DNA of 64,000 nt, from contig LCHW01000001.1 of assembly GCA_001000675.1 (NCBI GenBank), positions 289,424-353,423 of the forward strand, read 5' to 3'. The notes beneath the pieces are model-generated. The model did no database searches. It was not told the DNA's origin and saw only the letters and a list, made by a program, of their open reading frames with translations. Positions 34,287 to 59,374 of the stretch are shown in pieces. The number at the start of each line of letters is the position of its first letter. The first letter of the stretch is position 1. This stretch comes from Candidatus Wolfebacteria bacterium GW2011_GWE2_44_13 (lineage in GTDB: Bacteria; Patescibacteriota; Minisyncoccia; UBA6257; UBA9933). The translations under genes and the position numbers were made by a program.

Positions 34287-35009
34287 GTGCATAGGTTCAT
34301 TTTTATGCGTACTGATAAACAAAAAGCATTTGCATTGCGATTGAGCGGAAAGAGTTATAGGGATATTTCGGCCACATTGCATATTCCAAAATCGACTTTG
34401 TCGAGCTGGTTTTCGAACGTGCAACTTTCAGAAGACGTGAGAAATAAAATAAACGAAAAGGGTAGGAAAAAGTCGATACAGCTGCTTCTGGAAAGAAATA
34501 AGAAGCAAACTGAGCTTGCCGCAAAAAGAAATTACAAAATAAGAAAAGAGTCTTCTGAAGAAATTAGGGATATTTCTTCAGAAAATCTTTTACTTATAGG
34601 AGTTGCGCTGTATTGGGCCGAAGGCCATAAAAAAATGCTTGTAAGAAATGGGCAGGAGGTTACAAGCCATCCTGTTAGTCTGACAAATTCCGATCCAGTA
34701 TTAGTAAAAGTTTTTCTTAGGTTTATTCGAGAAATATGTAACGTTGATGAAGATAGAATAAAGGCGAGTGTTCGTATGTTTGACCATCAAAATGAACAGC
34801 ATGTTTCTGATTATTGGCGCGGGGTCACGGGGATAAAAAAAGAAAATTTTTGTAAAACATATACAGGGATAAGCAAATCAAGCCAAGGAAAGCGTCCATA
34901 TAATCGATTGCCGTATGGTACGATTCAAATAAGAGTTTCGGATACGAAGTTATTTCATCGAATTATTGGACTAATAGAGGGATTGAAAAAAAAATGTAGT
35001 TATGTATAA
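34287..35009 (+). CDS. HTH plus LAGLIDADG-like homing-endonuclease-family protein (freestanding)
   Basis: N-terminal HTH (SYRDISATLHIPKSTLSSWF). A single LAGLIDADG-like motif (LLLIGVALYWAEGHK) followed by the typical helix (DPVLVKVFLRFIREI). Lies immediately upstream of an intron-containing tRNA. Confidence 0.5.
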   Translation: MHRFIFMRTDKQKAFALRLSGKSYRDISATLHIPKSTLSSWFSNVQLSEDVRNKINEKGRKKSIQLLLERNKKQTELAAKRNYKIRKESSEEIRDISSENLLLIGVALYWAEGHKKMLVRNGQEVTSHPVSLTNSDPVLVKVFLRFIREICNVDEDRIKASVRMFDHQNEQHVSDYWRGVTGIKKENFCKTYTGISKSSQGKRPYNRLPYGTIQIRVSDTKLFHRIIGLIEGLKKKCSYV

Positions 35010-35036
35010 TGCATACATACCGTAAATAGGTATGTG

Positions 35037-35345
35037 GCCGCGGTAGCTCAGCGGTAGAGCGTAGCCCTGAATCTTCGGGGCCTTCTATAGTAATGTAGAT
35101 TGAATAACTGGGTGAATTCGGGGAAGGCTGTTGTGAAAGCAACGGATAATCCCGAGCCGAGCTCCATTGGGTTCGCCATCGGCGAAGTGGTGGAGAAGGT
35201 GTAGAGACTAGCGAGTGAGTCCCAACAATAATCTTGCAATAGCGCCCGGCTCCGTACCTTGCTTTTAGCAAGGCGGAGGTGAGATAGTCCAAATTAGCCT
35301 TGGAAGAGGCTAGCGTCGGGGGTTCAACTCCCTCCCGCGGCACCA
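35037..35345 (+). tRNA. tRNA-Phe (anticodon GAA) interrupted by a group I intron between positions 33 and 34
   Basis: Exons: GCCGCGG-UA-GCUC-AGCGGUA-GAGC-G-UAGCC-CU | GAAGA-GGCUA-GCGUC-GGGGG-UUCAACU-CCCUC-CCGCGGC-A-CCA. After splicing the anticodon loop is CUGAAGA; G37 is atypical for Phe. The D-arm and variable loop closely resemble bacterial tRNA-Phe. Confidence 0.75.
35069..35302 (+). ncRNA. group I self-splicing intron (234 nt, no ORF)
   Basis: P1: exon GCCCU pairs with internal guide GGGGC, with a U·G wobble at the splice site. P10: guide CUUC pairs with 3' exon GAAG. R-like (GUAGAGACUAG) and S-like (GAGAUAGUCC) core elements are present. The intron ends in G. Confidence 0.7.
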
Positions 35346-35358
35346 ATATGGGATTTGA
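35325..35358 (+). repeat. 34-bp direct repeat, copy 1 (tRNA-Phe T-loop/acceptor 3' end plus 13 nt)
   Basis: caactccctcccgcggcaccaatatgggatttga is identical to 35546-35579. Confidence 0.6.
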
Positions 35359-35545
35359 TTAACATAAAAAACAGTCTTGTGAGGAGGCTGTTTTTTATGT
35401 TAAGGAGGGCGCTTGGTGTCGTGGAGTGGGCAAACTGCTTTGCCCACGTGGGGAGTTTAAGACCGCAGCGATATACGTTCAGTAGGACGTATCGCGAGGG
35501 GCGGCCTGCGAGCTTGCTGAGCGACGGCGAAGCAAGACTTGTAGG

Positions 35546-35579
35546 CAACTCCCTCCCGCGGCACCAATATGGGATTTGA
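35546..35579 (+). repeat. 34-bp direct repeat, copy 2 (att-like partial duplicate of tRNA-Phe 3' end)
   Basis: Perfect copy ~190 bp downstream. The flanking terminator-like hairpins are also similar (cttgtgaggagg...). Confidence 0.6.
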
Positions 35580-35703
35580 AAAACTAGAAATGACCCTTGT
35601 GAGGAGGGTCATTTTTAGTTCCCGATATGCTTGACTTTTTAGTATGTTTGGGGCGAAGATGAAGACAGCTACATTTAATTCTGAAAAGAGAAGGAGTTAG
35701 GGC

Positions 35704-36351
35704 ATGAAGAGGAATCGTCTTATGGTTGAGGCTGCTGCAGTATTGCGAAGTGCTGCGAGTAAGGGGTTTTGCTGCGGCGAGATGTGCGAGCTTGAACGTC
35801 GGATGCGACATGCGTTTAGCGTGGCACTTTGCAATGGCATTGGGATTGTCCCTGAGCCCCTGCGAGAATATGCTGGTGGCGTATTACACACGGTGATTAC
35901 GCTGAACCAGGTGGGCGAAGAATCTGCGGTGGTTGGAGTCAGTATCACATGTTTTACGGATGGGGTGCTGACTACGCTTGATATTGACGCGGAAGAGAAC
36001 ATCATTTGTCGATATCAGGGTACGGGGAAGGTGTTCAAGTTTTTGTGGCATAACCCCACACAACTCATTGCAAAACCTCGAGATTTTTTTGGGGAAGGGT
36101 TTTTGTATGAGCCGAATCGGTTAGCGCTTTCTGCGGTGCACATGGGGACTGTCGCGTGTGTACGGGGAGCTGCGAATACTTCTTTCATGACGAGTGGCTT
36201 GTGCCTCGTTTCCGAGAGTCGTATCGAGGATATTCGCCACTATCCTGATCAGGGCAAGCTTGATTATGATCTCCGTGTTTTGTATGAAGAGATGACTTCG
36301 GGTGACGAAGAAGAGCGCGGACATGTGCTTTCCTTGCTCGCTTCTGCATAA
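35704..36351 (+). CDS. hypothetical protein (GC-richer orphan ORF)
   Basis: 215-aa ORF whose composition is visibly more GC-rich than its neighbours. Lies between the duplicated tRNA-Phe 3' repeat and tRNA-His. A terminator follows at 36358-36392. Confidence 0.4.
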   Translation: MKRNRLMVEAAAVLRSAASKGFCCGEMCELERRMRHAFSVALCNGIGIVPEPLREYAGGVLHTVITLNQVGEESAVVGVSITCFTDGVLTTLDIDAEENIICRYQGTGKVFKFLWHNPTQLIAKPRDFFGEGFLYEPNRLALSAVHMGTVACVRGAANTSFMTSGLCLVSESRIEDIRHYPDQGKLDYDLRVLYEEMTSGDEEERGHVLSLLASA

Positions 36352-36439
36352 CTTCTATTATGTGTCCGGCCCTTCGAGGCCGGACTTTTTTCACCTTGTA
36401 TTTTTTTAACAATCGGGTTATTATAGTAAACGTTTACAT

Positions 36440-41658: not shown

Positions 41659-42207
41659 ATGAATATGCAACTCTATAAGAAGGTTGAACAATTTGTCGTT
41701 GATGCATTTACTAAAGCAGAAAAATCGACTGATGTTTTTCATGCGCAGAGAACTGCGTATTGGATTACACAGTTAAAACCGGATGCGGATGAAGCGTTGC
41801 AAATCGCAGGATTTGCACATGATATTGAACGCGCATTCTATGGCGATTGGAAAAAGGGTTCTAGCGATGCTGATGCGTTGCGCAAGCATCAAGATATGTC
41901 TGCTGCCGAAATTACCAAATTCTTACGTGCTGAGCATGCTTCTGAAGAATTAATAGATCGCGTAAGTTATTTAGTAGCGCATCACGAAGAAGGGGGAGAT
42001 GTTGACCAAACTGTATTGTGCGATGCTGATTGTCTTGCATATTTTGAAGAAAAGGCAGTTCGTAATGCTAAAGAAAAGAAACAGCAAGGGAAAAATGCTG
42101 AAATGATAAAAAAGATAGACTATGTATTTAGTCGAATCGCCTCGTCAAAGGCGCGTGAAATTGCACGGCCATTTTATGATGAGGCGATGCATATATTACG
42201 CGATTGA
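41659..42207 (+). CDS. HD-domain phosphohydrolase
   Basis: H...HD motif (GFAHDIER) and a downstream His cluster (LVAHHEEGGDVD). Confidence 0.6.
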   Translation: MNMQLYKKVEQFVVDAFTKAEKSTDVFHAQRTAYWITQLKPDADEALQIAGFAHDIERAFYGDWKKGSSDADALRKHQDMSAAEITKFLRAEHASEELIDRVSYLVAHHEEGGDVDQTVLCDADCLAYFEEKAVRNAKEKKQQGKNAEMIKKIDYVFSRIASSKAREIARPFYDEAMHILRD

Positions 42208-42274
42208 TTGTGCGGTGTATAATTCCTTTTGCATTATTTAACGAGGTGCGATACGCTAGCAGTATACTGTTTTT

Positions 42275-43336
42275 ATGATCCTCGCTAATAAAGAAAAAGT
42301 GAATATATTATCCATTGAAACGAGCTGCGACGAGACAGCCCTTTCTTTTGTTACCGCAAGCGGGGGATTAAAAAAGCCGACTTTTGTCGTGCATGGCGAT
42401 GTGGTAGCTTCGCAGATCAAATTGCATCAGCCATTTGGTGGTGTTGTGCCGGCCCTTGCAAAGCGTGCGCATATAGAACATTTACCTCTTTTGTTTAAGG
42501 AAATTGTGGACGGAGGCATGCGCCCAGAAGAACTCGATTTTATTACGGTCACTGTTGGTCCGGGGCTTGAGCCTGCTTTGTGGACGGGGATTGAATTTGC
42601 AAAGCAACTTGCCGAGCAGTATAACAAGCCACTTATCGGAACGAACCATCTCGAAGGGCATTTATATAGTATCTTGGTATCAAAAGAAAAGCCCGATCCT
42701 AAAAAAATATTTCCTGCGATTGCGCTTATTGTAAGTGGTGGGCACACGCTTTTATTACAGATGGATGATTTGACGCATTTTAAAAAAATTGGAGAGACAG
42801 TAGATGATGCCGTTGGTGAAGCGTTTGATAAAGTTGCGCGCATGATCGACTTGCCGTATCCAGGGGGTCCTGAGATAGAACGCCTTGCAAAAGAGGGTAA
42901 TCCTATGGCGATTAATTTTCCGCGACCAATGGTCGGACATAAAAATTATAACTTTAGCTTTTCTGGATTAAAAACCTCAGTATTATATTATTTACGTGAT
43001 TCTGCTAAAGCTAAAAAAGATATTGTAAAAGCGGATATTGCAGCAAGCTTTCAACGAGCAGTTTCTGATGTGTTAATTAAAAAAACGTTACGTGCTGTAG
43101 AAGAGTTTGATGCGAAGTCGATTATGATTTCAGGAGGTGTTTCTGCAAATCGCACGTTACGTGCGGAGTTTGCCGCCTCCATTGAAAAACGATTTCCTAT
43201 TAAGAAGGATCGACCTGAACTCTTAGTGAGTGAGTTTTCGACTGATAATGCATTGATGATTGCCGCATCAGGATATATGGATTATTTACGAGGTAAGGAA
43301 TACAAAATAGAAGCGGATGGTAATCTTAACCTTTGA
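42275..43336 (+). CDS. tsaD: tRNA N6-adenosine threonylcarbamoyltransferase TsaD (Kae1/YgjD family)
   Basis: ILSIETSCDETALSF start and paired His metal site (GTNHLEGHLYS). Confidence 0.9.
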   Translation: MILANKEKVNILSIETSCDETALSFVTASGGLKKPTFVVHGDVVASQIKLHQPFGGVVPALAKRAHIEHLPLLFKEIVDGGMRPEELDFITVTVGPGLEPALWTGIEFAKQLAEQYNKPLIGTNHLEGHLYSILVSKEKPDPKKIFPAIALIVSGGHTLLLQMDDLTHFKKIGETVDDAVGEAFDKVARMIDLPYPGGPEIERLAKEGNPMAINFPRPMVGHKNYNFSFSGLKTSVLYYLRDSAKAKKDIVKADIAASFQRAVSDVLIKKTLRAVEEFDAKSIMISGGVSANRTLRAEFAASIEKRFPIKKDRPELLVSEFSTDNALMIAASGYMDYLRGKEYKIEADGNLNL

Positions 43337-43361
43337 CGTGATTTACTGACTTATATAATAT

Positions 43362-44432
43362 ATGCTTTCCTATTTACGACATTTTGATTGGAAGTTAAAC
43401 GCCGCGGTTGCGTTTCTTTCGTTTGTGAGTTTGGTTGAATTGGCGAGTATTAGCATGGATCTCTTTTGGAAGCAGTTACTTTTTGTGGGTATCGGGGTAT
43501 TGCTGATGCTCTTCGTGACCTATTTCGATTGGCGTTCATTTGTAAATTATCGTGGTGTTATTATGGGTATTTATGGAGGCGCGATTGCGCTTCTTGTGTT
43601 GACGCTTCTTATTGCCCCAGAAATTCGTGGAAATAAAGCATGGATTCCTATTGGTCCTTTTCAATTTCAAGCTTCGGTGTTTGCGAACCTCGCACTCATC
43701 GTGGTCTTGGCGAGCTTTTTCCGAAAAAGTCATCGCGCTATTGCGCGTCTCTCTACGCTTGCTAAATCGTTCATCTATTTCGCTATTCCTGCGGCGCTTA
43801 TTTATTTGCAGCCCGATTTAGGTTCTGTGTTGCTCATGCTTTCCGTCTGGTTTGGGTTTGTGCTGGTATCGGGAATTCGCTTACAACATTTAGTTGCGGC
43901 ACTTACGTTGTTTGCTGTGGTTGGCGCATTGGGATGGGCTGTATTTCTTGAGCCGTATCAGAAAAACCGTATTGTTGGGGTGTTTTTCCCAGATCAAGAT
44001 GTGCTGGGGGTCAACTATAACGTTATTCAAGCAAAAATCGCTATCGGATCGGCTGGCTTCTTAGGTAAGGGGTTTGGGCAGGGCACGCAAGTACAGCTCG
44101 GGTTTCTCCCTGAAGCACACACCGACTTTATATTTTCTGCGGTTACTGAAGAGTGGGGATTGATTGCCGGCTTCTTACTTATCGGGGCGTTTCTTGCTAT
44201 GATTGTGCGCATTGTCGCTATTGGACTTGAGGAGCGAAGTAATTTCGGTCAATTTATTTGTTTAGGTACTGCGATATTCTTTATTGCAAATTTTATATTT
44301 AACACCGGGTCTAACGTAGGGCTTTTGCCGGTTATCGGTGTTCCGTTCCCGTTTCTTAGCTATGGAGGATCTCATATTCTTGCAGAATTTATCTTGCTTG
44401 GCATGGTGCAGTCGATAAAGTTGAGAAAATAA
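43362..44432 (+). CDS. SEDS-family peptidoglycan glycosyltransferase (FtsW/RodA)
   Basis: Ten-TM topology with conserved PIGPFQFQASVFANLAL and SAVTEEWGLIAG motifs. Confidence 0.85.
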   Translation: MLSYLRHFDWKLNAAVAFLSFVSLVELASISMDLFWKQLLFVGIGVLLMLFVTYFDWRSFVNYRGVIMGIYGGAIALLVLTLLIAPEIRGNKAWIPIGPFQFQASVFANLALIVVLASFFRKSHRAIARLSTLAKSFIYFAIPAALIYLQPDLGSVLLMLSVWFGFVLVSGIRLQHLVAALTLFAVVGALGWAVFLEPYQKNRIVGVFFPDQDVLGVNYNVIQAKIAIGSAGFLGKGFGQGTQVQLGFLPEAHTDFIFSAVTEEWGLIAGFLLIGAFLAMIVRIVAIGLEERSNFGQFICLGTAIFFIANFIFNTGSNVGLLPVIGVPFPFLSYGGSHILAEFILLGMVQSIKLRK

Positions 44433-44437
44433 TAATT

Positions 44438-45469
44438 ATGCAATCTATATTTTCATTTTGTAAATCGTGTATTTCTGCGAGCCTGCTCTTTTTTGTCATT
44501 ATGGCGCTATTGTTGGGTGGAGCTGCTTTTGCCGATGCGTTGAAGCCAGTATCTGGTGGAGCAACTGTTCCCGAAGCGATAGAATTTTCAGTTCGCCCTG
44601 GTATGGGAGGAAAAGAAATTGCTCAGGAGCTTGAAGACAATCATATCATCAAATCAAAGACTGCATTTTGGACATATAGTATTCTTACTAGCAATGCAGG
44701 TGCGTTTCAGCCAGGAATTTATACCGTTGGTCCAGAACAATCAGTACGAGATATTATCTCACTTATGACCAAGGGTCCGCTTGAAGTTGAGGTGCTGGTT
44801 ACTCCTGGGATGACCATACTAGAGGCCGAAGATGTGCTTGTTGCGAGTAAAGTTCTTGCAGAAGGGGATATTGTTGAATTTCCTATTGATACGATTCGGG
44901 AGCAATATCCATTTTTAGGGGATGCGGAAATACTTGAAGGGTTCTTATTTCCTGATACATATCGATTTTACCCTCATTCTGACCCGAAATTGGTCGTGAG
45001 CAAGTTTTTGGACAATTTTGAGGCCAAACTGGCTCCGCTCTTGACAGACTTGCGCAATCCAGAAAATAATGATACTATTCATTGGCTTATTATTGCTTCA
45101 ATATTAGAGAAGGAAGTGACCAATAAAAAAGAGGATCAAACAGTCGCCGGTATCTTAGAGAAACGGTTGGCAATAGGCATGCCGCTGCAGGTCGACGCAT
45201 CGATTATCTATGCGAAATGCAAGCGTTTCATGAGCTGTCCCGCCCTAACCCGTGCCGATTTTCGTATTGATTCTCCGTATAATTCGTACCTTCATAAGGG
45301 GTTACCACCTACGCCAATTTCCAACCCCGGTATCGATGCAATAAGCGCAGCACGTTTACCTGTTCGCTCAAATTACCTGTACTACTTGTCTGATCCTCAG
45401 ACAGGGCAAACAATATTCTCAAAAACGTTTGAAGAACATAATGCGAACCGAACTAAATACCTACATTAA
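44438..45469 (+). CDS. mltG: endolytic murein transglycosylase MltG (YceG family)
   Basis: N-terminal TM segment and YceG-like domain (LQVDASIIYA ... YNSYLHKGLPPTPISNPG). Confidence 0.8.
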   Translation: MQSIFSFCKSCISASLLFFVIMALLLGGAAFADALKPVSGGATVPEAIEFSVRPGMGGKEIAQELEDNHIIKSKTAFWTYSILTSNAGAFQPGIYTVGPEQSVRDIISLMTKGPLEVEVLVTPGMTILEAEDVLVASKVLAEGDIVEFPIDTIREQYPFLGDAEILEGFLFPDTYRFYPHSDPKLVVSKFLDNFEAKLAPLLTDLRNPENNDTIHWLIIASILEKEVTNKKEDQTVAGILEKRLAIGMPLQVDASIIYAKCKRFMSCPALTRADFRIDSPYNSYLHKGLPPTPISNPGIDAISAARLPVRSNYLYYLSDPQTGQTIFSKTFEEHNANRTKYLH

Positions 45470-45509
45470 ATAAATCGTAAGGCCGTCGAATAACGGTTAT
45501 TTGTTTTTT

Positions 45510-48500
45510 ATGGCAAAGCAACTCCCAACAAAAGTTTTTTCAAAGCATCCCGGCGCGTTCATCGAACAGCCGTACCTTGCGACACTCCAGGCCGAGTCAT
45601 GGGACTGGTTTGTAAAGAAAGGTCTTCGAGAACTCTTCGACGAAATTTCTCCAATTAAGGATTACACCGGCAATGAAATAGAATTGCACTTCCTTGATTA
45701 TCACTTTGACGAACCGCGCTATGACGAGGACACAACCCGTTTGAAAGGGTTAACCTACGAAGCACCGTTGCGCGTTAACGTGAAACTTATTAATAAGGTA
45801 TTAAACGACGAAAAAGAACAGGAAGTATACCTGGGCGATTTTCCGATTATGACAAGCCGACACACATTCATTATGAATGGCGTTGAGCGTGTTATGGTTT
45901 CCCAACTTATCCGTTCGAGCGGTGTGTATTTCAGTGGAAATATGCTCCGAGGTAAAAAGGTATTTGGTGCGAAGATTATTCCAAACCGCGGAAGCTGGTT
46001 GGAATTTGAAACCGAGCTCGATGGCTTTATTGGCGTAAAGATCGATCGACATCGTAAAGCACCGGTAACAGAACTGCTGCGCGTCTTTGCTAATCACTTA
46101 GACATTACTCTTACCAATGAAAAGATCCTTGAGATGTTTGCGGACATCGATAAAGGTTCGGTTAAACACATTGAAGCAACATTAAAGAAGGATGCGGCAA
46201 AAACCGCTTCTGAATCGTATGTTGAAATTTACAAACGGCTTCGCCCGGGAGATTTGGCGACTCCGGAAAACGCACAGAGCTTAATTGATTCCATGTTCCA
46301 TCGTGATGACCGCTATAGCTTGTCCCGCGTAGGACGCTTTAAGGTTAATCAGCGATTGGAATTAAAAGATAAAGAATCAACATTACTTGATTTGGAAGAT
46401 ATCGTACAGATCGTACGCGAAATTATTCGTTTGAATAATGACAAGCATGCTGAGCCTGATGATATCGATCACTTGGGTAACCGACGCATTCGTGCGGTAG
46501 GTGAATTGTTGCAGGGCCGATTGTATGTCGGATTTGCACGTATGCGCCGCGCCATTCAGGATAAGATTTCAACTGCGGAAGCAGATGTTGTGTTGACCCC
46601 AGTACAACTTATTAACGGACGCCCATTGGTTGCCGTTATGAAGGAATTTTTAACCTCTTCCCAGTTGTCCCAGTTTATGGACCAGGTAAACCCATTGGCC
46701 GAAGTTGAGCACAAGCGACGCTTGTCGCTCCTTGGACCGGGTGGTTTAACTCGTGAGCACGCAGGGTTCGAAGTGCGTGACGTTCACCCATCTCACTACG
46801 GACGCATCTGTCCAATTGAAACTCCAGAAGGACAATCAATCGGTTTGGTAAACCACCTTTCAAACTATTCTCGTATTAACGAGTTTGGTTTCTTAGAAAC
46901 ACCGTATGCAAAGGTAAAGAATGGTAAGGTCACGAGCGAAATCGAGTGGATGAATGCATTGACCGAAACGAAGTTCAAGATCGCACACGGTGGAACCCGT
47001 CTCGATGGTAATAATAAAATTATTGATGAAGTGGTAGGTGCTCGTATTAAAGGTGAACCACGCACCTGTGATCGTGAAGAAGTTGATTTTATCGACGTTT
47101 CAAACGAACAGACCGTTGCTGCCGCAACCGCACTTATTCCTTTCTTGGAACATGACCCTGCAAACCGTGCACTCATGGGAGCGAACATGCAACGACAGGC
47201 TGTGCCGCCAGTAAAGACACAGGCTCCGTGGGTAGGAACCGGTATCGAAGATAAGATTGCTCGTGATTCAGCTCGCGCCATCGTTGCTCCAGAAGATGGA
47301 GAAATCATGGAAGTCGATTCAACACACATTGTGTTGAAGACCAAGAGCGAATTGAAGCACTTTGAATTCACAAAGTTCCAGCGCTCAAACAAATATACAA
47401 ACATTTCTCAGCGACCAATCGTCAACAAGGGCGATAAGGTAAAGAAGGGTGATGTGCTTGCCGATGGTCCGTCTATGGATCACGGAACACTCGCACTTGG
47501 ACAGAACATGCTCGTTGCATTTATGTCATGGGAAGGGCGCAACTTCGAGGATGCTATCATTTTGTCGGATCGCGTTGTAAAGCACGACGTGTTCTCATCT
47601 ATTCAGATTAAAGACTTTGTATGCGATGTTCGTGACACAAAGCTTGGACCTGAAATAACCACAAACGACATCCCGAACGTATCAGAAGAAAAACTCCGCA
47701 ACTTGGATGAAGAAGGTATTATCCGCATTGGCGCTGAAGTGCGCGCCGGAGATATCTTAGTAGGAAAGGTATCACCAAAAGGTGAAACTGAATTGACCGC
47801 AGAAGAAAAATTGCTCCGCGCAATCTTTGAAGAAAAGGCACGCGACGTAAAAGATACTTCGTTGTCCGTACCGCATGGAGAATCAGGACGCGTTATCGGT
47901 ATCAAGATCTTCTCCCGCGATCGTGGCGATAAGCTTGAACCAGGAGTTATCAAGCGCATCCAGATTGAACTTGCAGAACTTCGTAAGGTTCGCGCAGGTG
48001 ATAAACTTGCAGGACGACATGGAAACAAAGGTGTTATTTCACAGATTTGCGCAGCAGAGGACATGCCATACTTGGCGGACGGAACTCCTGTTGACGTTAT
48101 CTTGAACCCACTTGGTGTTACCTCTCGTATGAACCTCGGACAGGTATTGGAAGTGCACTTGGGGCTTGCAGCTCGCAAGCTTGGCTATCGCGCAGTAACG
48201 CCGGTATTCGCAAGTGCAACTGAAGAAGATATCCGTGGCGAATTGAAGAAAGCAGGATATCCAGAACATGGAAAATTGGAATTGTACGATGGACGATCAG
48301 GCGAAAAGTTTGTTGGTCCGGTGACTGTCGGTATCATGTATATGATCAAGCTCGACCACATGGTTGAAGATAAGATCCATATGCGTGCGACTGGTCCGTA
48401 CTCATTGATCACCCAGCAGCCGCTCGGAGGTAAGGCACAGTTTGGTGGACAGCGATTCGGAGAGATGGAAGTGTGGGCCTTGGAAGGATATGGCGCAGCT

Positions 48501-48728
48501 TACACCTTGCAAGAAATGCTCACCATCAAATCTGACGATGTCTTCGGACGCGCCGCAACGTATGAAAGTATTATTCGTGGAGAAAAGATTAAGAGCCCGA
48601 ATATCCCTTCAGCGTTCAACGTGCTCGTGAATGAAATTAAATCGCTCGGCATCTCTGTTGAAAAAGAAGAGATCGAACCGGAGGAAGGTGAAGAATTGCA
48701 TGAACGACCTTCTCGAATCGAGAGCTAA
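45510..48728 (+). CDS. rpoB: DNA-directed RNA polymerase subunit beta
   Basis: Conserved blocks throughout (PLMT-like GANMQRQAVP, NMGQ..., GQRFGEMEVWALE). Start chosen at MAKQLPT (45510) inside the ORF that begins at 45501. Confidence 0.95.
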   Translation: MAKQLPTKVFSKHPGAFIEQPYLATLQAESWDWFVKKGLRELFDEISPIKDYTGNEIELHFLDYHFDEPRYDEDTTRLKGLTYEAPLRVNVKLINKVLNDEKEQEVYLGDFPIMTSRHTFIMNGVERVMVSQLIRSSGVYFSGNMLRGKKVFGAKIIPNRGSWLEFETELDGFIGVKIDRHRKAPVTELLRVFANHLDITLTNEKILEMFADIDKGSVKHIEATLKKDAAKTASESYVEIYKRLRPGDLATPENAQSLIDSMFHRDDRYSLSRVGRFKVNQRLELKDKESTLLDLEDIVQIVREIIRLNNDKHAEPDDIDHLGNRRIRAVGELLQGRLYVGFARMRRAIQDKISTAEADVVLTPVQLINGRPLVAVMKEFLTSSQLSQFMDQVNPLAEVEHKRRLSLLGPGGLTREHAGFEVRDVHPSHYGRICPIETPEGQSIGLVNHLSNYSRINEFGFLETPYAKVKNGKVTSEIEWMNALTETKFKIAHGGTRLDGNNKIIDEVVGARIKGEPRTCDREEVDFIDVSNEQTVAAATALIPFLEHDPANRALMGANMQRQAVPPVKTQAPWVGTGIEDKIARDSARAIVAPEDGEIMEVDSTHIVLKTKSELKHFEFTKFQRSNKYTNISQRPIVNKGDKVKKGDVLADGPSMDHGTLALGQNMLVAFMSWEGRNFEDAIILSDRVVKHDVFSSIQIKDFVCDVRDTKLGPEITTNDIPNVSEEKLRNLDEEGIIRIGAEVRAGDILVGKVSPKGETELTAEEKLLRAIFEEKARDVKDTSLSVPHGESGRVIGIKIFSRDRGDKLEPGVIKRIQIELAELRKVRAGDKLAGRHGNKGVISQICAAEDMPYLADGTPVDVILNPLGVTSRMNLGQVLEVHLGLAARKLGYRAVTPVFASATEEDIRGELKKAGYPEHGKLELYDGRSGEKFVGPVTVGIMYMIKLDHMVEDKIHMRATGPYSLITQQPLGGKAQFGGQRFGEMEVWALEGYGAAYTLQEMLTIKSDDVFGRAATYESIIRGEKIKSPNIPSAFNVLVNEIKSLGISVEKEEIEPEEGEELHERPSRIES

Positions 48729-48869
48729 ACAATAACATAAAGAACGAGTAGTATTGCTTCGTCGTTTCATCGACAGGTCAGGATCACAGTATCCCTTGTC
48801 ATCGTGAACGACGAACGCAATGCATCGAGTTCTTCCCGTTCTCGAATTCATTTTCAAATTCTATTCCCT

Positions 48870-51800
48870 ATGAATTTTAACGCTATTAAATTGAAAGTCG
48901 CTTCGCCGGAGGACATTCTGAAATGGTCCCATGGTGAAGTTACCAAGCCGGAAACAATCAACTACCGAACCCAGCGTCCGGAAAAGGATGGTTTGTTTTC
49001 TGAGCGTATCTTTGGACCAACAAAAGATTACGAGTGCTATTGTGGAAAATACCGACGCGTTCGTTATAAAGGACTTACGTGTGATAAGTGTGGTGTAGAA
49101 GTAACGCACTCCAGTGTTCGACGAGAACGCATGGGGCATATTTCGCTTGCCGCTCCGGTTGCCCATATTTGGTTCTTGAAAGTTGTTCCATCTCGTTTGT
49201 CACTCTTTTTGGATATTCCAGTGCAGAAGCTTGAAAAGGTTGTGTACTATGCAGCGTATGTTATTACCCGCGTCAATGATGATGCTCGTAAGCGTGTGTT
49301 GAAAGAGCTTGAGGACGAGGTAAAAATGAAGAAGAAGGAGTACGAGGACGACAAGGATAAAGCCAAGATTGTCGAAGATCGCTCTGAGCAAATCAAGAAG
49401 CAATTGAAGTCCCTTAAAGAGGGTCAGATTCTTGCCGAAGCAGAATATTTTGAATTATCTCGAAAATACGGTGATGTGCTTGAGGCACTTTCTGGAGCAG
49501 GCGCTATGCGTCAGCTGTTGGAGAGAATCGACCTTAAGAAGTTGCTCACCCAGACCGAGCGTGAATTAGAAGAAACCGGTGACGAAGGGCAGAAAAAGAA
49601 GTTGCTCATGCGCTTGCGCTTGATCCATGCATTTACTCGACACAATATGCGTCCTGAGTGGATGATCATGACTCAGTTGCCAGTATTGCCGCCAGAAATC
49701 CGACCGATGGTCGCACTTGATGGAGGCCGTTATGCAACATCTGATTTGAACGATTTGTATCGTCGTGTTATCAACCGCAACAACCGTTTGAAGAAGCTCA
49801 TGGAGTTGCATGCGCCGGAGATCATTGTGGTCAACGAAAAGCGCATGTTGCAGGAAGCGGTGGATGCATTGATCGACAATGCGAGCCGTGGAGGAAGTGC
49901 TGTGCAGTTGTCTGCTCAAAAGCGACCATTGCGCTCACTTGCTGATATTTTGAAAGGTAAGCAGGGCCGTTTCCGACAGAACTTGCTTGGAAAGCGCGTA
50001 GATTATTCCGGACGTTCCGTTATTATCGTTGGACCTGAATTGCCGTTGAATTGCTGTGGATTGCCAAAGAAGATGGCACTTGAATTGTTCAAGCCATTTG
50101 TCATTAGCCGTATCATCAGCGACGGACTTGCACACACCATCAAGAATGCTACTCGTTTGATCGAGCAAGCACCTGCTGAAGTGTGGGCAATTCTCGAAGA
50201 CGTTATCAAGGACAAGAAGGTGTTGCTTAACCGTGCACCGACATTGCATCGTCTTGGTATCCAAGCCTTTAAGCCGATTTTGCATGAAGAGCTTGCTATT
50301 AAGATTCCGCCTATGGTTTGTTCTGCGTTTAACGCCGACTTCGACGGAGACCAAATGGCTGTTCACTTGCCACTCTCCGATGAAGCACAGAAAGAGGCAA
50401 CAGAGCTGATGCTCTCTAGCCGCAATATTTTGAAGCCAGCTGACGGTGCACCTGTTGCGTCGCCATCACTCGATATTGTTTTGGGTTGTTACTATTTGAC
50501 CAGTATCGTAGAAGGTGCGAAGGGAGAAGGAAAAGTATTTTCATCACCTGATGAAGCAAAAATCGCGCTTGAAGCCGGATACGTTGCTATCAACGCATCA
50601 GTGAAGATATTAATGGGTCGTGGCAATCTTGTTGAAACCAGCGTAGGCCGCATCATTTTCAATGAAGCGCTTCCTGAGAACTTTGGCTATGAGAATACCC
50701 TTATGAATAAGAAGGGACTCCAGCGCGTTGTTGCTACTGTTACTAGTGAGTACGGTATCGATAACACATGGATGATTCTTGATGCTATCAAAGATCTTGG
50801 ATTCAAATACGCAACTTTGTCTGCTACTACGTGGGCAATGGCCGATCTTATCATTCCAAAAGATAAGAAGGCGATTATCACCCAGGCAGAAAAGGAAGTC
50901 GAAGTTATTGAACAACAGTACGAAGAAGGATTCTTGACCGACGAAGAACGCCGAGAGCGCGTTGTCGAAACGTGGACAGGAACAATGGATAAGGTATCCA
51001 AAGTTACTCCGCTTGCGTTGAAAGAATCAGGACCAGGAAACTCAGCATATTCCATCATCGATTCTGGTGCTCGTGGATCATGGGCATCTGCTATGCAGAT
51101 GATCGGTATGAAAGGTTTGGTGCAGAACCCGCAAGGAGACATTATCGAACTTCCGGTAAAGTCATCCTTCAAGGAAGGACTTTCGGTATTGGAGTTCTTC
51201 ATCAACTCACACGGTGCGCGTAAAGGTTTGACTGATACTGCATTGAAAACTGCAGAGGCAGGATACCTTACTCGTAAGCTCGTGGATGTATCACAGAACT
51301 TAATCATTCGTGAAGATGATTGTAAGACGACCGAAGGGATTGAAATGTATCGCTCCGATGGAGATGAATATGGATATCCGTTTGGAACACGTTGCTTTAG
51401 CCGAACCGTCCTTGAGGATGTAAAGGTAGGTAACAAAGTTATCGTAAAGGCAGGGGAGAGCGTTACGCGCGAAGCTGCTGAAATCATTAACAACGAACCG
51501 AAGATTGAATCTATCAAGATGCGATCACCGCTCCGCTGTAAGACCCTCTATGGTGCTTGCTCGAAGTGTTATGGATACGATTTGGGACGTGGTGAATTGA
51601 TTAAGACCGGAGAAGCTGTTGGTGTTATCGCCGCACAGTCTATCGGTGAACCAGGAACGCAGCTCACGCTCCGTACTTTCCACAAGGGAGGTATCGCGGG
51701 AGTCGACATTACCCATGGTTTACCTCGTGTTCAAGAAATCTTTGAGTGCCGTTTGCCAAAGGGAAAGGCTATCCTTGCCGATGACGATGGTACGATTGAA

Positions 51801-52451
51801 GAAATTGAAGACAAGGACGCATTGAAAGCAGTTCGTTTGAAAATTATCAAGGCAAAGAAAACAAAGATTATTGAATACCTTGTACCACGCAGCATCCGCT
51901 TGTACGTAAAGGTAGGCGATGTCGTTGAACGAGGACAACAGTTGTGCGAAGGAAGCCTTGATTTGAAAGAATTGTTTGAATACCGTGGTATTGAAGCAGT
52001 TGAACGCTATGCAGTGAACGAAATCCAGCGCATTTATGTGCCGGAAGGTAACACGATTAACGATAAGCACATCGAAATCATCGTGAAGCAAATGTTCTCT
52101 CGCGTTATGATTAAGGAGGCGGGTGAGACAGAGTTCGTTACCGGAGAGGTAATCGAAAAGTCTCGTTTCCTTGAAATCAATCGTGAAATGCGAAAGGCAG
52201 GCAAAGCGCCAGCAAAAGCCAAACAGCTCTTACTGGGTATCGCACGGGTATCGCTTTCAACCGAAAGCTTCCTGTCGAGTGCATCCTTCCAGGAAACAAA
52301 CCGCGTACTCGTTGCCGCAGCCACTGAAGGTAAGGAAGATCGTCTCCGAGGACTTAAGGAAAACGTTATTATCGGTAAGCTCATTCCTGCGGGAACTGGC
52401 TATAATTTAACGGGAACCGAAGAGTTTCTTGAAGAGGAAGTGTTGGAATAA
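48870..52451 (+). CDS. rpoC: DNA-directed RNA polymerase subunit beta'
   Basis: Zinc finger [23 protein letters not shown], catalytic NADFDGDQM and a trigger-loop region. The ORF opens at GTG 48804, but [16 protein letters not shown] at 48870 matches the conserved N-terminus. Confidence 0.95.
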
Positions 52452-58768: not shown

Positions 58769-59056
58769 ATGCATTACGTGTATATTATCAGGAGTGATAA
58801 AAATGGTAAGTTGTATAAAGGATCAACCTGTGATTTAAAAACGCGATTACGTGAACATAATAGCGGTGTGACGCAATCTACGAAGGCTTACGCTCCGTGG
58901 CGATTAGTGTATTATGCGGTATTTGCGGATAAGACAGACGCGTTGCGTGAGGAGTTGTTTTTAAAGAGTGGCAAAGGGAGAGAGCGTGTAAACTTTTTAC
59001 TTGCCAATACTCTTGTGAGATGCCAAAATACAAAGAATATTGGAGGGGTCGCATAG
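58769..59056 (+). CDS. GIY-YIG nuclease-superfamily protein
   Basis: MHYVYIIRSDKNGKLYKGSTCDLKTRLREHN carries the GIY-YIG catalytic motifs. 95 aa. The stop codon lies inside the first 15 nt of tRNA-Ser. Confidence 0.6.
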   Translation: MHYVYIIRSDKNGKLYKGSTCDLKTRLREHNSGVTQSTKAYAPWRLVYYAVFADKTDALREELFLKSGKGRERVNFLLANTLVRCQNTKNIGGVA

Positions 59057-59126
59057 TGGCCGATTGCGCTCGCTTGGAAAGCGGGTATACCGCAAGGTAT
59101 CAAGGGTTCGAATCCCTTCCCCTCCG
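59042..59126 (+). tRNA. tRNA-Ser (anticodon GGA), class II with long variable arm
   Basis: Acceptor GGAGGGG/CCCCUCC and discriminator G. Anticodon loop UUGGAAA. Variable-arm hairpin UAUACC-GCAA-GGUAUC. T-arm AAGGG-UUCGAAU-CCCUU. Confidence 0.8.
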
Positions 59127-59374
59127 CACATAGCAACATAAGCGCCTACTCTTTACGGGTAGGCGTTTATGTTGCTGCTATGAGTGGAGATAAAGAGGGA
59201 TTCGAAAACTACTTTTAAAAGCAAACTGCTTTGCTTTTAAAAGAGTCGGCGATGGAGGAGTTTCGAAGCTTGTTTCGAGTATTCGAGGAACGCTGAGTAA
59301 CGGGGGAAGAGGAATCCCTTCCCCTCCGCCATTTAGAATAGGTATTCCAATGAGATATTTGGCAAATTGATTCT

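Follow-up and report, generated by a model that had tools for sequence, protein, structure and literature searches.

The locus described here lies in a 64-kb stretch of the genome of Candidatus Wolfebacteria bacterium GW2011_GWE2_44_13 (contig LCHW01000001.1), called the window below, and concerns the DNA directly behind a tRNA-Phe(GAA) gene; all window features given with coordinates are on the + strand. The 3' exon of this gene (35303–35345) holds the anticodon GAA at 35303–35305, the T loop at 35323–35329 and the CCA at 35343–35345, and the tail of the tRNA, together with part of its 3' trailer, is found a second time further downstream, ahead of an open reading frame (ORF) of 215 amino acids (aa) at 35704–36351. 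The original prediction for this locus had taken the repeat as the attL/attR scar of an integrative element that has since been mostly deleted, with the GC-richer ORF as foreign cargo left behind. We found instead that the DNA between the repeats is an intact, conserved and folded non-coding element, and that it is one of a family.

The 34-nt repeat, CAACTCCCTCCCGCGGCACCAATATGGGATTTGA, was present exactly two times in the 64-kb window, at 35325–35358 and 35546–35579, both on the + strand, as had been predicted, and no third copy was seen there at up to three mismatches; the chance expectation for a repeat of this length, as judged from 100 shuffles, was none. Copy 1 runs from C56 of the tRNA through the CCA (positions 56–76) and on into 13 nt of trailer, whereas copy 2 consists of the displaced tRNA tail plus trailer. 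The copies are separated by 187 nt, with 221 nt from start to start, so that the distance of 190 bp given earlier was close but not exact. Beyond the repeats, a similarity of 76% runs on through two hairpins with U-runs, confirming the terminator-like structure noted behind each copy. The first of these, T1 (35359–35403), has 19-bp arms and a terminator-like appearance; the second, T2 (35582–35620), has an unlike stem but the same loop, TGTGAGG, and is followed at 35631 by TTGACT, a promoter-like box. The locus was found unchanged in four independent public assemblies of the source organism and is therefore no assembly artefact. Three public contigs of the source organism and a related one (L004, L005 and L046) end within or just past the repeated tail and hairpin; the repeat thus fragments assemblies and can conceal the arrangement.

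The whole structured element, which we call a 'W-type' tRNA-tail element, spans 35411–35569 and forms a fold of about 155 bases (186 bits with covariance model R1). It starts with the 5' strand of a stem termed P0 (35413–35424, TTGGTGTCGTGG), which is antisense to the acceptor 3' strand plus ACCA plus one more nucleotide and pairs with 35556–35567 in the second repeat copy. This strand covaries with its target, being GGTGCCGCGG in the related locus L047 and TGTGGAGAT behind the transfer-messenger RNA (tmRNA) gene of L021. Next comes hairpin P0.1 (35426–35447; loop CUGC), which holds the 14-mer GCAAACTGCTTTGC and shows compensatory changes in six of its nine pairs, followed by an anti-T segment (35450–35459, GGGGAGTTTA), of which 35450–35457 make up the 5' strand of stem P1 and pair with 35547–35554, again in copy 2. 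The corresponding anti-T sequence in relatives, GGGAGTTGAA, is complementary to T-loop positions 54–60 and to positions 61–63. Two further hairpins then follow: hairpin A (35468–35495), with the loop UCAGUAGG, or CAGCAGG in relatives, and compensatory changes in 4 of 11 pairs, and hairpin B (35504–35546), with 9 + 6 bp, a bulged A, two invariant G.U pairs and the 12-nt loop GAGCGACGGCGA (35519–35530). That loop recurs behind tRNA-Leu in L014, on a stem which is different in sequence but complementary. The element ends with the duplicate of the tRNA tail from C56, which pairs with both antisense strands and so closes the fold with a stem enclosing the three hairpins. No tRNA-like domain was detected by ARAGORN in the second copy and, since the T-loop bases and the CCA are paired within the fold, the element is no tRNA mimic.

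Support for this fold came from an alignment of five W-type sequences, namely those behind tRNA-Phe in the window, L020, L037 and L047 and that behind the tmRNA gene of L021. Standard pairs filled 96.5% of the pair cells, and changes on both sides were seen in 17 of the 57 pairs, compared with 5.5±1.9 in shuffles (none of 500 reached 17) and 1–5 in slid controls; three G.U pairs were invariant. The folding energy of 35411–35569 was −92.5 kcal/mol on the + strand (z = −9.5) but −66.8 kcal/mol on the − strand (z = −4.0), the latter thus being less stable by 26 kcal/mol. A P1 stem with two hairpins was also found in two further subfamilies, with 8 and 9 compensatory pairs, and the same fold is adopted by a second element of the window, behind tRNA-Ser (z = −3.5). 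A covariance model built from the five sequences gave 164–193 bits for its own members and 55 bits for part of the L014 unit, and found no extra unit in the 225 kb searched. Compensatory changes thus exceeded the controls, conservation exceeded that of the flanks and the two strands behaved asymmetrically, as is the case for structured non-coding RNAs. The fold is under selection, as seen from the compensatory changes, the three invariant G.U pairs, the strand asymmetry and a conservation far beyond that of neutral DNA.

Comparison with related genomes gave the same picture. Each relative holds either the same non-coding unit, of about 190–220 bp, or an empty site, and neither an intact island nor variable cargo was found at the locus in any of them. 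Exact empty sites, seen in L010 (Candidatus Wolfebacteria CP011209), L048 and L049, read tRNA-Phe, a single trailer with its hairpin, the TTGACT box and the ORF, with one tail copy and nothing inserted; the part of the original prediction which held that the repeats bound an insertion is thereby borne out. Where present, the element was about 88–90% identical between lineages whose 215-aa ORFs are 36–40% identical. In L047, for example, where the ORF is 38–40% identical to that of the window, identity in the unit is about 90% and the P0.1 stem has covaried in full. When aligned from the tRNA to the ORF, the unit was near-invariant save for compensated stem changes, and the spacer past T2 could not be aligned. 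The unit-bearing genomes fall into two clades of the ORF tree (the window in one; L020, L037 and L047 in the other), a distribution consistent with old, mostly vertical inheritance with losses. The 187-nt insert bounded by the tRNA-tail duplication is hence an intact, structured, strand-asymmetric and conserved member of a family with empty sites, and not what remains of something mostly deleted.

The stems of the trailer hairpins occur as five covarying 'alleles' (a–e), which have been reshuffled from genome to genome and between the T1 and T2 positions. The combinations at T1/T2 are a/b in the window, c/b in L037, c/d in L020 and d/c in L047, and the empty sites carry d, a and e; the T1 stem of the window, allele a, was also seen in the single hairpin of L049 and in L046. 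This distribution suggests that gene conversion, or excision followed by reinsertion, has taken place at the tRNA-Phe locus. The repeat of tail plus trailer is identical within each genome and different across genomes (AATATGGGATTTGA, GAAAGGGATTTGAATAA and AATAGGGATTTGAT). A conserved GGGATTTGA box and a hairpin loop of the form (T/C)TGTGAGG(A/G) are shared by the tRNA-Phe trailers of the window, L010, L020, L037 and L046–L049.

The 215-aa ORF, in turn, is a fast-evolving and lineage-restricted resident gene, unrelated to the element and not its cargo. A ribosome-binding site, GGAG, precedes it by 8 nt, a terminator follows at 36364–36385, and the ORF lies outside the insert. Eight related genomes share the gene order PAS protein, tRNA-Arg, tRNA-Pro, tRNA-Phe, 215-aa ORF, tRNA-His, hemerythrin, rubredoxin and phosphoenolpyruvate (PEP) synthase, and in each of these loci a syntenic homologue of the ORF separates tRNA-Phe from tRNA-His, whether or not the insert is present. 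Across these genomes it is 29–51% identical, as against about 90% for the amino acid sequence of PEP synthase. A word-indexed protein search returned the ORF itself only, whereas a full phmmer scan of 1.8 billion representatives gave 12 relatives in 12 clusters, one of which (P0010) is the ORF between tRNA-Phe and tRNA-His in CP011209; no meaningful match was found in Pfam, PHROG or NCBIfam. The GC content of the ORF is indeed raised (0.505 versus 0.427 for the whole window), as had been noted, but the raised GC stretches over 35000–36400 and therefore covers also the inter-repeat element and an intron in the tRNA gene. With the ORF being more GC-rich than its locus in seven of the eight genomes, its high GC characterises the gene family and is no mark of recent import. 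A confident AlphaFold model (predicted local distance difference test score 86) consists of two N-terminal helices, a long antiparallel sheet and two C-terminal helices, and had no significant neighbour in the PDB. The ORF family always adjoins tRNA-Phe.

The element has relatives behind other tRNA and tmRNA genes of candidate-phyla bacteria. In a scan for the 21-nt tRNA tail, covering one genome per species, the metagenome-assembled genome L014 was found to carry this 21-mer at the end of a tRNA-Leu, behind which two units stand in tandem, each ending in that tail. A metagenome search with the pattern GGGAGTTKAAR, 60–90 nt, CAAMTCCCTCC yielded 27 loci, a set biased by that pattern, of which about 17 hold real units, equalling roughly ten distinct elements. 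The host genes were tRNA-Phe (L020 and L037/L039/L045), tRNA-Leu with four anticodons, CAG, CAA, GAG and UAA (L022, L024/L028, L030, L032, L033 and L042), and tmRNA (L021, the gene confirmed by Rfam at 66 bits). Wherever the contig extends upstream, the units lie 17–230 nt downstream of an intact gene, and L040 and L041 end at a contig edge. A script that took every tRNA in all loci gathered and sought its tail downstream, giving cases not selected by the pattern, added tRNA-Ser(GGA) in the window, tRNA-Arg in L010 and tRNA-Met in L012, as well as an antisense segment only behind tRNA-His in L016. The Ser element of the window (59180–59332) follows tRNA-Ser(GGA) at 59042–59127; it has its antisense strand, GGGATTCGAA, as anti-T segment at 59197–59206, a long hairpin tipped at 59221 by exactly the same 14-mer that tips a hairpin of the Phe element, GCAAACTGCTTTGC, and an 18-nt copy of the tail at 59312–59329.

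The layout common to the family is thus a tRNA, a spacer often containing a terminator-like hairpin, P0 in some subfamilies, the P1 anti-T strand, at least two hairpins and the tail copy. The members are about 130–220 bp in size and protein-less, tandem arrays occur in L014, L022, L024 and L033, and none of the members forms the end of a larger island. The P1 anti-T strand is the complement of the whole T loop plus three T-stem bases and tracks the T loop of the neighbouring gene, being GGGAGTTGAA for TTCAACTCCC, GGGATTCGAA for Ser, GGGATTTGAA for Met, AGGAATCGGA for Arg and GGGACTCGAA for His. The W-type core itself was seen behind tRNA-Phe, tmRNA and, in part, tRNA-Leu, with P0 fitted to each host gene.

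Several hits of these scans were set aside or are of another kind. The pattern hits L023, L026, L027, L029, L031, L034, L043 and L025/L036/L038 were judged to be chance or coding matches. The hits in the metagenome contigs L019/L035 and L044 were arrays of clustered regularly interspaced short palindromic repeats (CRISPR), the repeat of which ends in GGGAGTTGAAAG, that is, anti-T bases plus AAAG, and each of which has a spacer containing CAACTCCCTCC; the resemblance could be a coincidence forced by the search pattern, or the spacers could target DNA carrying a tRNA tail. A run of tRNA-Leu fragments at 1–345 of L013 (Candidatus Doudnabacteria JACQJK010000079), in which ARAGORN called no tRNA, has inserts of 30 and 57 nt exactly at TT|CAACT of the T loop with no duplication and may represent a related but different kind of T-loop insertion. 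In L022, a duplicate of the 5' end of tRNA-Leu (20 nt, reaching the D loop) lies about 90 nt upstream of the gene, and in L033 four tandem 52-nt repeats lie between tRNA-Leu and the unit, where the tail repeat extends over 37 nt or more, 16 of them trailer. At 2675–2740 of L016, downstream of tRNA-His, a terminator hairpin is followed by CTGGTGACGGGACTCGAA, the reverse complement of the T loop, the T stem and part of the acceptor strand of that tRNA, which forms a long palindrome only, having neither core nor second tail.

The edges of the repeats were informative as to the possible origin of the antisense strands. Of 15 repeat pairs, 11 had C56 as their left edge; for Ser and Met this edge lay one base deeper, for Arg it was C61, and one L024 unit begins in the variable arm. 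The right edge was variable, falling anywhere from the discriminator base to 17 nt past the tRNA end, with 16–38 nt being exact and including genome-specific trailer. The antisense strand always extends to T54 and so covers two or three T-loop bases that are missing from the second copy, and in L021 its complementarity extends to seven trailer bases that belong to copy 1 and not to copy 2. Since the antisense strand thereby fits the intact gene better than copy 2, that gene seems to be its template or its target. Two simple insertion schemes failed at the same edges, in that a serine recombinase acting with a 2-nt stagger at T54–T55 does not agree with a copy 2 junction without TT, and HUH-nickase insertion into the T loop does not agree with a right end of the insert that is not T stem plus TT.

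We also looked for proteins that could be associated with the element. Among scanned window ORFs of at least 110 aa (a scan that covered 41659–52451 in part and most but not all of the short ORFs), no recombinase, transposase or reverse transcriptase was seen, nor any tnpB, iscB or IS110 gene, and annotated genes within 10 kb on either side included no recombinase, transposase or reverse transcriptase. Window genes with Pfam matches were of housekeeping type (SecDF, EF-P, MnmA, TyrRS, RpoB, S6, SSB and others), and about a dozen scanned window ORFs had no Pfam match. The small ORFs within 35324–35612 gave no signal, and hence no integrase fragment, in Pfam, PHROG or NCBIfam, and no protein was common to the distant unit-bearing loci. 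At the RNA level, Rfam 15 gave mere noise on 35346–35620 at E≤10 (ctRNA_pND324 at 23.7 bits on T1, MIR7486 at 19.6 bits) and no match for the L014 and L012 units, and neither by sequence nor by Rfam did hammerhead, twister or hepatitis delta virus ribozymes, group II domain V, T-box, Y RNA or permuted tmRNA fit. The tail does not belong to a tmRNA either, as position 70 is G and hence no G3:U70 pair is formed, and the window had no tmRNA match in ARAGORN or Rfam. In IMG/VR, no viral contig matched the 21-mer core or the W-type motif, and a loose P1 pattern gave eight loci that by eye were coding or, for L050/L053, iteron-like repeats. Tail elements of this kind were not described in the literature searched.

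The closest known systems each share part of these features. Displaced tRNA and tmRNA fragments are found at the ends of tyrosine-integrase islands and prophages, which is the concept behind Islander and TIGER (PMC4383910). Like those islands, the tail elements show a direct repeat of the tRNA or tmRNA 3' part from the T loop, an intact gene, empty sites in relatives and possible tandem accretion. They differ in having 130–220 bp between the repeats, no integrase or cargo in any member, a repeat that enters genome-specific trailer, an internal antisense copy of the target and a structured, covarying and conserved core. The cis-mobilizable elements (CIMEs) of Streptococcus thermophilus, which have attL and attR but no recombination module, are kilobase-scale deletion derivatives of identifiable integrative and conjugative elements. 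They resemble the tail elements as protein-less DNA between att-like repeats that is possibly moved in trans, but no parent of the tail element was found and its interior looks selected for a single-strand fold. Site-specific retroelements such as R2 in ribosomal DNA, or the short and long interspersed nuclear elements (SINEs and LINEs), are co-transcribed with a host RNA gene and inserted through target-primed reverse transcription. Here, the likeness lies in a target duplication of which one edge is fixed and the other variable, a structured non-coding RNA, a 3' end with target sequence able to anneal to the nicked target and an RNA gene that is occupied without being destroyed. The scanned window ORFs included no reverse transcriptase, however, an RNA intermediate is an analogy only in the present case, and to our knowledge no such site-specific retroelement is known in bacteria. 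Guide RNAs of transposons, finally, include the reRNA of TnpB, the omega RNA of IscB and the bridge RNA of IS110. All have segments complementary to a target, and the TnpB reRNA combines a scaffold of about 135 nt with some 20 nt matching the flanking target, but the tail elements lack a nearby effector gene and an Rfam match, have their target-like 3' end paired inside the fold and restore the target gene through duplication. With integron attC or the CTX-type att site there is a resemblance only, in two inverted target copies about 90 nt apart, and no recombinase was identified.

Taken together, we read the insert as a conserved, structured and target-duplicating element with RNA as its active form, made in the tRNA orientation, and we would put the probability of this reading at roughly 55%. 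RNA is favoured because of the G.U pairs, the strand asymmetry and the orientation. Such an element would enter a tRNA or tmRNA gene at its T loop, and the stretch from there to some variable position past the tRNA end would be duplicated; as the target is duplicated, the tRNA would stay intact and the displaced tail would become the 3' strand of the element. Transcription would proceed in the tRNA orientation, either with the tRNA or just after it, with the duplicated tail, trailer and terminator serving 3'-end formation, and the product may accumulate as a stable folded RNA. The antisense strands, matching the T loop and tail of the resident tRNA, could serve in target recognition, as a closing stem or both, and would be re-templated at new sites, where template switching at hairpins probably helps in making and correcting them, as the L016 case may illustrate. 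Candidate routes of movement are target-primed insertion from an RNA with a 3' tail annealing to the nicked tRNA gene, a folded single-strand DNA att site or an attP-only minicircle moved by a recombinase. More tentatively, and with clearly less confidence than in the element as such, we consider that it may spread through a folded single-strand intermediate, with the displaced tail as 3' end and the antisense as 5' strand, choosing its target by base pairing and having its guide re-templated on arrival. The route of such an intermediate could be target-primed (retro)insertion, as a bacterial analogue of SINEs or R2, or a folded single-strand DNA att site.

Several observations weigh against this preferred reading. 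A folded single DNA strand would fit the G.U pairs, the strand asymmetry and the orientation as well; T1 looks like a good terminator, and no promoter-like site is found between it and the element. P1 is invariant in the W-type alignment, its backing comes solely from covariation across tRNA types, and RNAalifold favours GAGGGG (35497–35502) as the partner of CUCCC. The reach of the antisense strand into bases present only in the intact gene is a hint that the strand may in fact pair with, or be copied from, the tRNA gene, and the antisense strand of L016, having neither core nor second copy, shows that part of the pattern can arise alone. The loci fetched by pattern scan are a pattern-biased set, and no mobilising enzyme was found.

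Other explanations must also be weighed against the element as an active RNA. Moved at the DNA level by a recombinase encoded elsewhere, it would be a miniature non-autonomous integrative element with the repeats as attL and attR, either attP-only and CIME-like or with a folded single-strand att site as in CTX phage or integron attC, and its hairpins would then act in DNA. T loops of tRNA and tmRNA genes are reportedly integrase targets, as Williams is said to have described in 2002, and tail repeats starting at the T loop, exact empty sites, tandem accretion and trailer hairpins reassorted as if excised and reintegrated would all agree with this; folded antisense and sense copies of the target could even mimic a double-stranded attB. 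T loops are, moreover, the classic integrase targets (PMC4383910). The scanned window ORFs and the annotated genes within 10 kb on each side contain no integrase, however, and IMG/VR holds no counterpart for the 21-mer core or W-type motif. The bases to the left of copy 2 also fail to recreate the T-loop TT that a shared crossover would need, the genome-specific trailer within the repeat makes the 'element copy' look locally duplicated rather than imported, and vertical retention of the element spans a divergence at which identity in the ORF has dropped to 36%; we regard a DNA-level module as unlikely. The absence of integrase remnants from the ORFs searched speaks against the scar of a lost tRNA-Phe island or prophage. 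The displaced tail fragment, the higher GC of the ORF and its lack of homologues in the word-indexed search had made that explanation attractive, but the ORF lies outside the repeats and is conserved and syntenic in eight loci with its GC excess as a family trait, the insert is conserved and structured, the arrangement is present without variable cargo in four lineages, and the other family members with upstream sequence available are equally small and sit directly behind intact genes; conservation of the ORF had been named beforehand as grounds for refutation, and we thus find the original prediction very improbable indeed.

The insert could also be a functionless mutational by-product. Template switching during replication is known to create hairpins and, acting at the terminator and T-arm hairpins, it could have given first an inverted and then a direct copy of the tail, as a miniature tandem-inversion duplication or palindrome extension, with the rest as filler. 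The order of the tails, direct, inverted, direct, fits with this, and in L021, L010 (Arg) and L016 (His, with the first step only) the tRNA tail, hairpin and reverse complement form one long palindrome. What it leaves unexplained is the homologous 85-nt core with conserved loops and covarying stems at tRNA-Phe, tmRNA and tRNA-Leu sites, the exact 14-mer in both the Phe and Ser elements and the strong conservation relative to flanking DNA. A simple T-arm switch or tandem-inversion duplication would, moreover, join the anti-T strand straight to the T stem with no core in between, and as a full explanation it was rejected for that reason; a by-product origin seems improbable to us. To a resident, non-mobile small RNA gene, such as a tRNA-like processing or decoy RNA that shares its 3' end and terminator through local duplication or gene conversion, we give similarly little credence. 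Vertical conservation and covariation fit with it, as do the concerted identity of tail and trailer inside each genome and a loosely tRNA-like order of acceptor-like P0 and a D-arm-like hairpin. The elements are sporadic, however, behind many tRNA genes and tmRNA, vary in presence at orthologous sites, form tandem arrays and have almost the same core behind different host genes, with an antisense strand that is fitted anew to each gene, and with T-loop bases and CCA paired, and no tRNA or tmRNA seen by ARAGORN or Rfam, mimicry of a tRNA is not at hand.

Should the preferred reading of a conserved RNA element be correct, tRNA and tmRNA genes of candidate phyla carry conserved structured elements that are missed by ARAGORN, Rfam and protein-based island finders, and that would be misread as att scars or tRNA pseudogene fragments. 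A target duplication that spares the tRNA, together with an antisense copy inside the element, suggests that insertion or recognition is steered by base pairing and involves no element-encoded protein; a novel mode of insertion, or a novel RNA function linked to tRNAs, could thereby come to light in organisms whose genomes are strongly reduced. With regards to annotation, the 215-aa 'orphan' belongs to a resident gene family, and the tRNA-Phe gene itself is split by an intron and missed by standard tools.

That intron, of group I type, separates the tRNA-Phe 5' exon (35037–35068, positions 1–33, with U33 as last base, as read from sequence) from the 3' exon between anticodon loop positions 33 and 34. 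It spans 35069–35302 (234 nt) without any ORF, with U-1 at 35068 and the omega-G at 35302. A low-threshold scan with Rfam matched Intron_gpI at 35059–35312 with 46.2 bits (E = 5.8e-10), slightly below the gathering score of 50. The sequence spliced at the 35068–35303 junction was called as tRNA-Phe(gaa) by ARAGORN, which confirmed the identity of the gene as predicted; the match to the catalytic core P3–P9, the U at −1, the G at omega and exons splicing to a canonical tRNA together identify a group I intron. In the unspliced DNA of 35270–35345, neither ARAGORN nor the Rfam gathering scan called a tRNA, because the intron splits the gene after U33. Group I introns at the 33/34 site of tRNA-Phe(GAA) in Patescibacteria have been published (PMC13011429), and the likeness of 35069–35302 to these, including the lack of an internal homing endonuclease, holds for this segment only, the intron being a feature separate from the repeat. 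A homologous intron at the same site was found in L017 (Candidatus Yanofskybacteria), L037 and L049 and was absent from L010, L020 and L048. Intron and tail element occur independently of each other, with only the element present in L020 and only the intron in L049.

Upstream of the split gene, a 240-aa ORF (34287–35009) lies between tRNA-Arg and tRNA-Phe. A LAGLIDADG assignment, suggested by an unconfirmed resemblance of LLLIGVALYWAEGHK to that motif, was not upheld, as sequence searches of Pfam, PHROG and PDB support an N-terminal helix-turn-helix only, with weak Pfam and PHROG matches. No counterpart was given by tblastn in seven related loci, and this ORF is therefore a variable, possibly mobile gene beside the intron-bearing tRNA.

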